NCBI GenBank assembly: GCA_964016885.1
Contig: OZ024745.1
Coordinates: 34,224,001-34,288,000, forward strand
Origin: Eledone cirrhosa
Lineage: Eukaryota
Direction: 5' to 3'
DNA length: 64,000 nucleotides
Positions 9,221 through 46,931 of this stretch are shown here, piece after piece; position 1 is the stretch's first letter, and the number at the start of each line of letters is the position of its first letter. Both the position numbers and the translations under genes were made by a program. Under the pieces are notes generated by a model. That model searched no databases and was not told the origin of the DNA. It worked only from the letters and a program-made list of their open reading frames with translations.

Positions 9221-9341
9221 TTATTGACACGTGTTTCTATAACAGTTACATAACCTGAAAACAGCTGCTATCTACAAAGTATTAGTTATGCAGACATTCA
9301 ATGTTTCAATGTTATTATCAACTGTCATTTCATCGGAATAA
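9221..9341 (-). ncRNA. Degenerate type-I hammerhead motif with long stem II
   Basis: Minus strand: ttatt-CCGATGA-[atgacagttg...taactgttat]-GAAA-cacgtg-TC-aataa. Palindromic stem III. U4C change and 10.1/11.1 mismatch. Confidence 0.55.
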
Positions 9342-12300
9342 TTTTACTGAGGGCCTGTTTGGTTTTTATAGAGAATATTAGGAGGTGAGGGGTGAAGTTG
9401 TTAGAAGAATAGTTGAGGGAGTGGTTTTTTGATAGCAGTGAGAATTTTTGGTGGCAGTGAGTAATTAGATTCCCATCTGTTGTTTTGACATTTTTATAGA
9501 ATATATTATTGGTTATTTTTCTAAATCTATAGAAGGATTAGAGATAGTAAAGATATGCGTGGTTGGTTTTGTATTACAACACTACGGAAAATACTGTATA
9601 TATTTATATATATATATATATCGAGAGAGAGAGAGAGCTCTGCGATGTTCTTCAACAAATGCGTGATCCGATGTCTCGCCATTGTCCTAGGCAGAAGATC
9701 TCCTAGCGTCTAGTGTGCTCTACCAGCTACATTGACTGATGAGAAAATGAAGACTAATTACCGATGTAGAGTTTAAATATTCTTTATTATGGCTAAGCAT
9801 TGAGTCTTATTACAGTTCATGTCGGATAACCCCGAGATAAAAAGGCGAAACTCCAGAGTAATAAGACTCACTTTTTAGCCTTAATATAAATGAATATATA
9901 TATCAGTTTGTGTGAGTGTGTATGTATGTATTCATGTATTCGATTAGGTAAACAAAATGACTAATTAATTCAGGCACCTACAATCAATGGATTATATCGG
10001 ACGATATATTTTATAGTATTTATTTCAGCTTTTTTCCAATGAGGTCGATTATTCTTTCATATATATGGTGGTCGTTAAAATAAACTTTCATTCAAGTACT
10101 TGGGCTGATATAATTGACTGCCTCCACTCCCAGATATTCTGCTCTTGTGTCTAAGAAATAATCATCACCATCGTCGCCGTCGTCATCATTATCATCATCA
10201 TCATCATTATCGTCATCACCATCACCACCACCACCACCACCACCACCACCATCCCTATTATAACCATTACCATCATCATCATTATCAACCTCGTCAACCC
10301 CCCAAAATCATCATCATCATCATCATCATCATCATCATCATCAGCAGCAGCAGCAGCAGCAGCAACAACAACAACAGCACCAGCACAACCATCATCACCA
10401 TTATCACCAAAGCTAAGTACATAAATGTATTACAATAATCGTGACCTCATTGATTGGTGTAAAGATTTACTAAGTTTGTACTGTATGCTGACTTTGAAAA
10501 AAGGCTTTGTCTAATAGGCTTTAATTTATTATTATAACTATAGATAACAACACAGTAACTATTGTATTCGTTTACGTGTTGCCATGCCAACGCTTATGTA
10601 ATATTTGTGTTGTAGCTGTTCCGACAATAAGCGTTCCAGTTCGGTCAAACAAAAGAACAGCTGGCTTGTAAAATTAATGAGCAAGTGCCTGAGCATTCAA
10701 CAAACACGAGAATCCTTACGGTAGTTCACATGGAAATTCAGCATATCACAATGTATGACAATGCTGACCATTTGAAACACAGACGTAACTCATTTACCAC
10801 CTAAGTGATTGAGAGCAACGTGAAATTAAATAACTTGCTCAAGGACAAAACGCACCGTCAAGAATCGAAACTACAACCTTAAGATTAATGACAAAGTTGA
10901 GTAAGCCGACTATTTTACAAGTTGTTATAAGTTATCTTAGTAAACGGATAGATGAAGATACCTGGCTTCTGATGAATAGCCAACTAGGTACGAAACATAT
11001 AAAGGTAATTCCTATAATTTCCTGTGTACGAATAAAATAAAAACTGTATTCATACTTGTTCCTTTTAATCAGTGAGATTCATGGTTTAATACTGTAGTTA
11101 TACCTACATTAAATTATCTCATACTTTCTAGTATACGATGTGCTATACCGTCATTAAATTTATCTTGGATTTTCTAATATACTTTATGTTATATCTACAT
11201 TAAATTTATTATTATTTCTTTATTTATACGCTGTTTACACACATAGAATGGCTAACTTTTCGTTCCATTTCTGAGATCGAACGTAAGATATATTTGTAAA
11301 ATAACTGAGGATCGCTCATTGGCTCAATTTGAAGAAATATCATGGGCTTGGTTTTCTCAGAAAGCCAGGACACATTCCTTCACATGCAATCCAAGACTTC
11401 TTCAATTCCTCCTCATTTTGAATCGTCATCTAGTAATTTATCATCCGAGCATCATATTAACACGTTTTCAAACCTTAGTAATTGTATTGTCCCAGATGAG
11501 ATTAAGTCTGAAGCAGCATTTTTTTTTGTGAACTGTTAATTCATGATATCTCATATAGTTGATTATATAATATTTTGTTTGATTAATACACAATATCCAC
11601 CATGGGCAAAATTTCTTCATAGGGATTTTGAAAGTCCTCCTCTGAGAGTTAATTGTTTCTTGTCTGAGAATCACAGGAGAATCCAATGTGGTACCCTGAA
11701 TTCCTATATGAATACAACATTTTTCACAATGGTCCAACAAGAAATAGGATTACAGGACTAATTTCCAACACCACATAATTATTTTAACTATTTCCGATAT
11801 AGTTATTTACTAATATCAACAGATCGTTTGTATCTAATGAAGTAAACATCCTATGTGTGTCAATTAATTTTGAAAATAATAAAAATATGTGCCACTTTAG
11901 CGTGCAGTCTAATTCAACTTCCAAATAAGCAGAAAAACTACTCTAGTATAGAGGCCAAGTCATTAGACAGCGTATATTATGAGTTATGTGGTAAACTGCA
12001 CGCTAAAGTAGCAACAAACAATGTGTATGGATTTAATAAGATAACTTTTTCTTTAGTAAGGTGGTCTTTGGAATATTACTTAAAACATTTCTTACGTAAA
12101 ATTATGACGAAGATTTTAATATAAATAAGAACACTTCAACATAAGCAGTTTCGTATCATAGAACGAGAGATAGTTTCAAGCATTTTCGTAACAAAAGGAA
12201 AGAAAATAAATATTAACTGTGCACGTGGAAAGAGCTTAATTCATGTCAACATAAATTGGTATTGGTGGGAATTATAAAAAGAAAGCAAGTTGATAATTGT

Positions 12301-45760: not shown

Positions 45761-46823
45761 TACAACTTTAAGGTCGTATGTGGTTTTCTAAGAGAAGCAC
45801 AAGTTTCACAAGTCAAACCTTCACAGTGGAGTATTATTTTACTGATTTCATTTTATTTAACGTCTACGTTTTCATCTAATTATGATTCGTAGAATAACCA
45901 GATTTTGTTACAGTTTTATATAAATAACTCTGGGTTAACATAATGTGTTTTCACAATATGGCCCCATTGGATGCAAATTAGTTGAAATACGGCCATCAAG
46001 CATACACGAGTTTCCTACTTCTGAACAAATATGTCAGGTGGTCTTGGATGGAAGTTATTCATATCTAGCAAACTCCGATGGAAGTTATTCATATCTTGCA
46101 AACCCCGAGAATCGGAGATCATTGTAATTAAGAGTTATCGTTTTAAGTTCATATTTCTATGTTTTCACAGCCTCGAGCAAGCCCGCAGCTTATCTCGGGT
46201 TTATTAAGCAACTGAGAGCAACCTTAGAAGTGAGGTCATTATTTGCACCCCTTTACGTTTATTATGTTGCCTTGTCATTGTTGTAACTGTAGAAAAGTTA
46301 CAAAGAGGTGTCAGCACAAAAACATTCATTGGCAACCGTCTGACTGGGAGACATTCATAGCCCTCACTACACTCAATTCAATAGATGTAGCTAGCGTTGT
46401 TGTTGTTAGTACAGTTCAGCTTGTAGACGTTTAGTCTGCCTCACATGAAGCTGCATCACATATGAGGTTTCAAAGGCCCCAGTTAGTTCTATCATAAGAA
46501 CTCAGTAGAAAATCCAGGTGAGGCGAAATGTCAATTGTTCAGATGTCGGGGCTGATCTGCATGTTGTAACTTTACCTCGCTCTTTCATAACTTTAGTAAA
46601 CTTCAATCTGTTGCGCGCATTCGGACCTGGTTCCCGATTTCTTCACCATAAAAAGGTATAGAAAGATACAAGAAATATATTATCATTAGATAAAATATAT
46701 TATCATTAGATAAAATATATACAGTATTTCTTCTCTCAATCAGCATAAATCAACCACACAAAAATTCCTTTAAACATATATATATATATATATATTTATA
46801 TACAATAAGGGCTTTATTCACAT

Positions 46824-46931
46824 TGCTGACAATTTTTTCTATGAACTGGTAGGTCTAGAGATCGCTTCCCGCCTGTTTTTGCGTCAATCGATCACCAATA
46901 CTTTGTTATAACCAGTCTATTCATCAGAGTA
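46824..46931 (-). ncRNA. Degenerate hammerhead motif with long stem II
   Basis: Minus strand: CTGATGA-atagactggt...accagttcata-GAAA-aaattg-TC-agca. Insert is bounded by (TA)n on both sides, and stem I is eroded by the (TA)n. Confidence 0.55.

Follow-up and report, generated by a model that had tools for sequence, protein, structure and literature searches.

Hammerhead inserts at (TA)n tracts of Eledone cirrhosa as probable truncated ends of Penelope-like elements

Seven of the eight hammerhead-bearing inserts in the stretch of Eledone cirrhosa DNA analysed here (64,000 nt, called the window below) can with high confidence be regarded as remnants, located in (TA)n, of protein-coding Penelope-like elements (PLEs) of which just a short 3′ end is present; their most likely origin is reverse transcription that began at the TA target and ended prematurely. 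For all seven families cited in the initial annotation, called A to G, longer genomic copies extend 5′ into a Penelope-like RT/GIY-YIG ORF, with 85–99.6% identity to the ORF-bearing copies. Within families, copies share between about 140 and more than 1,600 nt of upstream sequence, and it is these variable 5′ ends, together with the continuation into RT/GIY-YIG ORFs, that lead us to read the seven families as truncation products of coding elements. The view that the cited loci represent a protein-free retro-element population is thus not upheld, and an RT plus GIY-YIG partner with matching ends, as had been sought, was found for every cited family.

The pLTRs flank the ORF as direct repeats in families B, C and F, and lie 3′ of it in A, D, E and G. 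The pLTR–ORF–pLTR units amount to 4.2 kb in family B, 4.4–4.5 kb in C (copies L182 and L187) and 3.5 kb in F (copy L255). For D, E and G, the endonuclease ORF is located 1.0–1.7 kb upstream, in copies sharing 84–94% over 1.3–1.7 kb, the long family D copies L193/L248 and L201/L249 running into it. Judged by motifs, a single ORF with the order RT then GIY-YIG endonuclease is present in L049, L051, L181, L182, L185, L187 and L255. No intact full ORF was seen among the long copies read, and a sense PLE ORF lies within 1.5 kb upstream in just 3/30 and 6/30 unselected copies.

The assignment of six families (B to G) to the Hydra type and of family A to the Neptune type is based on motifs. All six Hydra-type families, which insert in (TA)n, have the CxCX5C linker and CxxC-E, and CCHH is absent; CxH was found by motif scan in B, C, D, F and G and seen in the translations of E. 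RW[KR] occurs in B, C, E and F and DKT only in E and F, neither being present in the fetched D and G copies. Family A has GxKF, DKG, a CX2-5CxxC linker and CCHH, and its copies L049 and L051 carry RT and GIY-YIG pieces, with a Pfam GIY-YIG match at E 2.5e-7. Pfam gave no RT in the family A piece and neither RT nor GIY-YIG in six Hydra-type protein pieces, and the family B protein had no match in the PDB. The Atlas clusters nearest to this protein score 0.94–0.97, and several of them contain RVT_1 (40–78% of members) or GIY-YIG (21–47%). The ORFs of the other families are not among the matches listed for the family A protein probes because they are of another type; probes taken from each family's own long copies found them.

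The family F insert (9183–9575, minus strand) is a 5′-truncated 3′ end of a Hydra-type PLE, consisting of 3′ UTR and pLTR, that is 98% identical to the 3′ end of L255 and borders with its short 3′ end on (TA)n (9124–9182). Its minimal type-I hammerhead (9221–9341, minus) has a CCGAUGA core, a long stem II, the stem III ACACGUGU and a stem I of 5 bp. An inverted 34-nt stub of the family F tail (9568–9601, plus; 97% to L255:4524–4557) constitutes the second fold-back arm and is followed by (TA)n. Family D is represented by a 5′-truncated Hydra-type pLTR end (20248–20402, minus; 96% to L248), with a minimal hammerhead at 20294–20349 (minus) that has a CUGAUGA core, the stem III AUAUAUAU and the stem I ACUGC/GCAGU. 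Copies of this family were gathered by pattern search, the DNA similarity search having missed even the window copy, and a genome pattern search gave 2,301 exact 31-mer matches compared to 0 for the control.

Family A forms two arms. The left one (27802–28050, minus; 99.6% to L049) is a truncated pLTR end of the Neptune type, in which the tail (27802–27862) is 61 nt long and the hammerhead at 27939–27976 has a U3-A8 core and the stem III ACCGGU; the right one (28047–28390, plus) is a truncated copy with its short end at (TA)n and a hammerhead at 28277–28314. Family B likewise has a left arm (30417–30697, minus; 95.5% to L181:1797–2087), a Hydra-type pLTR end with a tail at 30417–30570 and a CCGAAGA-core hammerhead at 30616–30662, and a right arm with the short end (30851–30990, plus; hammerhead at 30896–30942), which is 97% identical to both L181 pLTRs. 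In L181, the tail continues into the start of the ORF. Bordering on the family B arm, at its TA end, is a tailed Hydra-type pLTR end of family C (30998–31205, minus; 97% to L182 and L187), the hammerhead of which (31105–31171, minus) has a stem I of 8 bp. An inverted 45-nt stub (31203–31247, plus; 100% to L182:2095–2139) makes a short fold-back there before (TA)n.

Family G is a longer truncated Hydra-type 3′ end with tail, with approximate boundaries at 43465–44040 (minus; 85–86% to L250 and L251 over about 600 nt), and its hammerhead at 43592–43662 (minus) has one mismatch in stem III. Family E (46799–46932, minus; 96% to L252 and L178) is a decayed Hydra-type pLTR stub, cut within stem I and with a changed palindrome. 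The eighth insert, family H (25400–25672, plus), is absent from the initial annotation; it is an older repeat that ends at (TA)n, with 25400 as a provisional 5′ limit and a U3-A8 minimal hammerhead at 25483–25520. The ORF list of the window consists mostly of simple repeats, and no host gene was identified in it.

The motifs were detected with a descriptor in which a core (CUGANGA, CCGANGA or UUGANAA) is followed by stem II, GAAA, a stem III complementary to itself, UH and a stem I of 4 bp or longer. The window contains 8 strict minimal type-I hammerheads, while 100 dinucleotide shuffles gave means of 0.09–0.2 (maximum 2). When one mismatch in stem III is permitted, the numbers are 9 and 0.37–0.52 (maximum 4; 100 dinucleotide shuffles), the extra motif being the one on the minus strand at 43662–43592. 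It should be noted here that the core variants were picked after the loci had been read, which makes the window test partly post hoc; the genome-wide pattern count given below and a count in 40 arbitrary 10-kb genome blocks are independent of the window copies. The latter yielded 22 strict matches, compared to 0–2 across 10 shuffles, and the proposed enrichment over composition-matched shuffles holds in both samples.

Type-I hammerheads had been proposed at seven loci. The descriptor finds motifs at six of these and at the new locus on the plus strand at 25483–25520, the hammerhead at 43592, altered in stem III, entering the counts only in the relaxed form. The proposal does not hold for 46824, a decayed copy that fails the descriptor: compared with its relative L252, it is cut 2–3 nt upstream of the core, with most of stem I lost, and in its stem III palindrome a C is replaced by A. 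Rfam gave no match in the whole window at the gathering score, no hammerhead at 30440–31240 with E ≤ 10, and, in an E-value scan of the window, no hammerhead among the best 150 of 308 matches, which were microsatellite-driven. Standard annotation would therefore undercount such motifs.

Over the whole genome, one core pattern has 78,717 matches, compared to 95 for its control, and the extrapolated density corresponds to about 120–160 thousand motifs. In two sets of unselected loci, (TA)n follows on the 3′ side at a distance of no more than 300 nt in 30/30 and 27/30 cases; the same applies to 15 of the 22 block matches, compared to 18% of random positions. The search candidates number about 1,000–2,800 per family, the inserts themselves being of ordinary sequence complexity, and most families are young, with best copies 95–99% identical. 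These numbers support a large, diverse and (TA)n-associated population of minimal hammerheads, tied to Penelope-like pLTRs. In family H, with 2,811 candidates of which the best are 79–84% identical, no ORF was found upstream in the 1.5-kb flanks of the 20 loci examined. Its core columns vary less than the rest (6/219 compared to 422/4,637 cells), which fits selection in source lineages and could also fit selection on the copies.

The layout described as often fold-back is real at two places in the window, namely 27863–28050/28203–28390 (family A) and 30417–30697/30851–30990 (family B). Among unselected loci, an inverted copy was found upstream in 13/30 and 3/30 cases. Of 66 tail-out pairs, 58 combine one short and one tailed end and 8 include an arm left unclassified; no pair has two ends of the same kind. 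Contigs of four sequencing runs, whose kind is unrecorded and which have no bearing on expression, contain fold-back joints of various kinds, about 70 in all, as well as the short end terminating at TA. From the variable 5′ ends, we infer that reverse transcription would begin at the TA target and halt early, giving a 5′-truncated 3′ end. The hammerhead sits about 40–80 nt from the short 3′ end of the element, which means that nearly every abortive copy retains it and loses the ORF. As to the fold-backs, the polarity of their ends suggests that priming took place twice, on either side of the TA target; in one case it would occur at the short end, and in the other at the end of a tail that comes from the 5′ leader of the element itself.

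A stem I with 4 bp or more is present in 27/30 loci picked with no stem requirement, many of them related, and in 1/120 slid controls. Across nine families, seven of which were found by the descriptor that requires stem I, 36/36 of its positions pair, the average over 10,000 partner shuffles being 19.3. A joint switch is seen at positions 3 and 8, which are C-G in seven families and U-A in two; both combinations had been built into the descriptor. According to folding predictions, stem III does not form in any of the seven motifs alone, while the self-duplex is favourable in six of seven; in free cofolding, stem III enters the dimer helix in just three (F, D and A). In the predicted folds of both window fold-backs, every hammerhead base (38/38 and 47/47) pairs with the antisense arm. 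The ribozyme is predicted to work only in the source elements, where two same-sense pLTR hammerheads would pair through the palindromic stem III, and the solo and fold-back window copies would be inert fossils. A search of sequencing runs, made for family A only, listed no RNA dataset as carrying this family.

Another option considered was that the inserts are dedicated non-autonomous hammerhead elements, that is, solo retrozymes amplified from short masters with borrowed PLE proteins. Coding sequence is indeed missing from most copies, a derivation of retrozymes from pLTRs has been argued by Li et al. 2026 (10.64898/2026.07.22.740005, in the part of the article available), and outside the window the genome does hold a protein-free tandem family with a 311-bp unit, each with a hammerhead. 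In L326 this family has 12.8 copies at 99% with a longest stop-free frame of 59 aa; its units are 100% identical across many contigs, and no related ORF was found among the fetched loci. In (TA)n it inserts as a pair of arrays in head-to-head orientation, the ends of which are fixed and unequal, with up to 17 units per side, showing the same insertion signature as the PLE ends in 10/10 loci examined, and it fits the retrozyme definition in the accessible parts of PMC7229834 and Li et al. 2026. The window loci share with animal non-LTR retrozymes the type-I hammerheads and the pLTR kinship described there, but they are not tandem, have variable 5′ ends and are tied to ORFs through the identities given above; moreover, excision of a monomer is not expected from a single or antisense-paired minimal hammerhead. 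Retrozyme arrays local to the window were rejected, as no tandem hammerhead array occurs among 150 of its 165 listed repeats and the families carry ORFs. We consider the solo-retrozyme option improbable.

Still less probable, to the point of being very doubtful, is that the host keeps the copies as functional RNA elements, for instance as transcript cutters or as hairpins feeding small-RNA pathways. The copies are numerous, the fold-backs, if transcribed, would form hairpins with arms of 130–190 bp, and the core columns of the old family H are less variable than its flanks; against this, two cited copies (46824 and 43592) already contain disabling changes, most families are young, and the window has no identified host gene. 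Chance matches in AT-rich, repeat-rich DNA can be dismissed, since the escape from Rfam, the often TA-like stem III and the tuning of the descriptor after the loci had been seen are outweighed by the genome-wide and 40-block counts, by stem I and (TA)n at unselected loci, and by the pairing across families with the 3/8 co-switch, on which the descriptor was partly built.

The arrangement of truncated pLTR ends, inverted partners and (TA)n is already known from PMC4209133 and PMC8557442, as far as the accessible parts of these papers go. Cervera & de la Pena 2014 (PMC4209133) describe there minimal hammerheads that derive from truncated PLEs and occur solo or on opposite strands; as here, the metazoan motifs have a short helix I, a long helix II, a palindromic helix III and a U3-A8 variant, are mostly solo with some opposite-strand pairs 100–700 bp apart, and comprise many families per genome, few within full elements. 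The count here, at least 78,717 for one pattern, compares to about 2,000–9,000 per genome in that text, in the available part of which no mention of the CCGA (U4C) cores of families B and F was found; such variant cores are covered by Lunse et al. 2017 according to the accessible part of the review PMC6765202.

Craig et al. 2021 (PMC8557442, likewise in part) report truncation, inversion, a tail and (TA)n targets for PLEs, and state the hammerhead function in EN+ PLEs as unclear. The Hydra-clade elements of that paper have RW[KR] and DKT, seen here in some of the families, and, as here, the CxCX5C linker without CCHH, CxxC and CxH around conserved E and N, and hammerheads. The units here are 3.5–4.5 kb (L255, L181, L182, L187) with 3′ UTRs of 1–1.9 kb, compared to '<3 kb' for Hydra, a difference that is descriptive and not diagnostic, and the tails are 60–155 nt compared to 30–40. 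The paper treats 21 Repbase families and a few more, while at least six families, each with about a thousand or more candidates, are found here. Neptune-type PLEs, described there as paraphyletic, share with family A the GxKF, DKG and CX2-5CxxC linker motifs and CCHH in the C-terminal GIY-YIG domain. Related families may already appear in the family tables of Craig and of Cervera. PLEs are reported in cephalopods in PMC13282606 and PMC8967140, the accessible text of which has 0 occurrences of 'ribozyme', and literature pairing hammerhead terms with 'octopus' gave no report of such motifs in such a genome. The word 'inverted' has 0 occurrences in the available text of Cervera & de la Pena 2020 (PMC7229834), and in that of Li et al. 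2026 'invert' refers to invertebrates in the occurrences covered, 12 out of 16. The motif density, the strict short-plus-tailed polarity and the protein-free 311-bp family go beyond the accessible content of the cited papers.

Finally, the reading of the inserts as abortive PLE ends can be extended, tentatively and with the balance somewhat against it, to a joint one. At least some 100,000 hammerheads would stem from a recent multi-family burst of the Hydra type; with ends downstream of an intact cleavage site, strict short-plus-tailed pairs and a like signature in the protein-free 311-bp repeat, PLE proteins would copy ribozyme-cut, re-ligated circular RNA by two primings at the TA target, and would mobilise retrozymes in trans in the same way. 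These ends are also accounted for by a linear read-through template that stays uncut and comes from tailed tandem sources, a plausible model with which one tail–tail direct pair is in keeping. Taken alone, the inserts of the window are truncated retrotransposon ends of an ordinary kind. The genome is a test bed, with young families that differ in their ribozyme cores, insertion junctions in the thousands and a young retrozyme-like repeat that has the insertion signature too, and it would allow direct testing of the circular-template idea and of PLE-driven retrozyme mobility.

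Eight minimal type-I hammerheads are found in the window by a descriptor search in strict mode and nine when one stem III mismatch is permitted, compared to means of 0.09-0.2 and 0.37-0.52, respectively, in 100 dinucleotide shuffles. The descriptor was composed post hoc, with the loci already inspected. It covers 9221 (family F), 20294 (D), 27939/28277 (A), 30616/30896 (B), 31105 (C) and, in relaxed mode only, 43592 (G). The layout described in the initial annotation is thus recovered at six of its seven loci, while the copy at 46824 (E) is decayed, being cut within stem I and having an altered palindrome compared to a relative. 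The core is CUGAUGA in families D, C, G and E, CCGAUGA or CCGAAGA in F and B, and UUGAAAA in A and H. No hammerhead in the window scored at the Rfam gathering threshold. The motif at 25483, absent from the initial annotation, belongs to an older, eighth family, H (25400-25672, forward strand), with a U3-A8 core, 2,811 candidates and ca 80% identity (best 40 scored); an upstream ORF link was not found in 20 loci. The sequence observation is therefore confirmed, and its interpretation is supported in part.

The part that is not supported for the window is the proposal of a protein-free population. All seven cited families (A-G) reach ORFs of Penelope-like elements (PLEs) in longer copies, the 3′ ends of which match the window copies with 85-99.6% identity. 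Longer copies of family A run into RT + GIY-YIG ORF pieces with GxKF, DKG, CX2-5CxxC and CCHH. Units with an ORF between two terminal repeats (pLTRs) measure 4.2 kb in family B, 4.4-4.5 kb in C and 3.5 kb in F, and in D, E and G the endonuclease ORF is reached 1.0-1.7 kb upstream. The six families B-G have CxCX5C and CxxC-E and lack CCHH, with RW[KR] in four of six and DKT in two of six. All these features are given for the Hydra clade in PMC8557442, and families B-G would, by motif-based naming, be Hydra-type. RT and GIY-YIG families are among the nearest Atlas clusters of the family B protein; Pfam and PDB searches with Hydra-type protein pieces were blank. How far upstream copies remain alike differs widely, between roughly 140 nt and more than 1,600 nt. 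A sense ORF lies at most 1.5 kb upstream in only 3/30 and 6/30 unselected copies; these counts are too low wherever the 3′ UTR exceeds that distance. A second PLE-like ORF type (346 aa) occurs twice in direct orientation at G000:C4:224.068-224.072 Mb (L179). The copies are separated by 2.1 kb, a family E end precedes each of them, and relatives are present in many fetched loci.

In the 3.0-Gb assembly, DNA searches give about 1,000-2,800 candidates per family. Identity is mostly 95-99% for families A, B, C, E, F and G (best 40 candidates scored), and family D has 2,301 exact 31-mer matches vs 0 for the control. The pattern CTGATGA-N12-40-GAAA-YRYRYR-TM has 78,717 matches genome-wide vs 95 when read backwards. 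Stem I has at least 4 bp in 27 of the first 30 pattern loci, chosen without a stem requirement and many of them related, vs 1/120 slid controls. Forty arbitrary 10-kb blocks contain 22 strict motifs (five from a single array) vs 0-2 in shuffles, and scaling gives a rough extrapolated total of ca 120-160 thousand motifs. A search of 300 nt to either side shows (TA)n 3′ of the hammerhead in 30/30 and 27/30 loci of two sets and 5′ of it in 15/30 and 17/30; for block hits the numbers are 15/22 and 7/22, vs a background of 18%. The large (TA)n-associated population suggested initially is thus borne out.

In every family the 3′ end is fixed at one of two places: the short form stops ca 40-80 nt beyond the predicted cut site, and the tailed form ends farther out. 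The tail in full units is the element's own leader, continuing to the ORF start. Of 66 tail-out pairs, 58 combine a short and a tailed arm, none has like arms, and eight have an unclassified arm, two of these from family D, whose tail was undefined. There are also six tail-in neighbours and four direct pairs, and family A has many distinct fold-back joints in public contigs.

Between two family B arms lies a fragment of a ca 190-bp repeat (30685-30837), around which a 14-bp stretch is repeated (30685-30698 and 30824-30837); the latter may be a target duplication. This abundant interspersed repeat, possibly SINE-like and often tandem or inverted, has 24 matches within 15741-62307 (e.g. 29665-29979, 41264-42336, 61785-62307). 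The window also holds a minisatellite (38906-41079) in which a 30-bp unit recurs about 69 times. On the reverse strand, 18888-19168 weakly matches metazoan SRP RNA (E 2.8e-7; 41.5 bits vs a gathering score of 70) and may be a 7SL copy in decay.

Elsewhere, a dispersed family (L031-L048; 18 matches among 74 scored) has a hammerhead above the Rfam Hammerhead_1 threshold. The family occurs as solo or inverted copies that are followed by (TA)n, mostly after 83 or 185 nt, and that have up to 1.2 kb of 5′ sequence in common; no ORF link was seen. A further family (L292, L316, L323), with a CUGAAGA core and a stem II of about 100 nt, occurs in 3/40 arbitrary blocks.

The results above establish position, polarity, target and ORF linkage for the PLE ends, and PLEs are described in PMC8557442 as truncated, inverted and tailed, with a preference for (TA)n. 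In the likely mechanism, the endonuclease would nick TA tracts and the RT would prime at the short or tailed end, mostly halting within a few hundred bases, such that the hammerhead is retained and the ORF lost; fold-backs would arise from two primings. The cut site lies intact within the inserted ends, so the template was either uncut there or re-ligated, and the data fit both alike. In the predicted folds of both window fold-backs, every hammerhead base pairs with the antisense arm. Stem III is predicted in no monomer; its self-duplex is favourable in 6/7 motifs, and it is present in 3/7 when dimers are folded freely. Owing to the antisense pairing and the lack of stem III in monomers, the window copies are predicted to be inert. 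For PLE minimal hammerheads, PMC4209133 reports low-level cleavage of dimers and none of monomers.

The window finding is a further instance of an already described PLE-hammerhead arrangement. Minimal hammerheads of truncated PLEs, both solo and on opposite strands, and the U3-A8 core were reported in 2014, at 2,000-9,000 minimal hammerheads per genome (PMC4209133), retrozymes and their pLTR origin in 2020 (PMC7229834) and 2026 (10.64898/2026.07.22.740005), and Hydra elements that carry hammerheads and target (TA)n in 2021 (PMC8557442). Canonical hammerhead motifs reach 120,000 in axolotl. The main texts and literature searches covered here gave no minimal-hammerhead count as high as here, no report of a multi-family Hydra-type burst and no end polarity common to PLEs and a retrozyme-like repeat.

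Protein-free ribozyme elements do exist in this genome, outside the window. A 311-bp unit with one minimal hammerhead forms 12.8 tandem copies in one arbitrary block, a young array with no ORF (L326:2434-6652, G000:C3:280.008-280.013 Mb; also L373-L382, L020, L181 and L183/L095). The 40 candidates scored contain 335 matches to this unit, and units on many contigs are 100% identical. Ten of at least 18 loci were examined, nine of them chosen mainly because both orientations were listed, and all ten consist of two head-to-head arrays, with outer ends at unit position 262-264 on one side and 289-295 on the other, both adjoining TA-rich repeats. The repeat family is retrozyme-like, and its insertion signature is of the PLE type. 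This signature of fixed unequal ends and (TA)n, common to the 311-bp and the coding families, suggests that PLE proteins may mobilise the 311-bp family.
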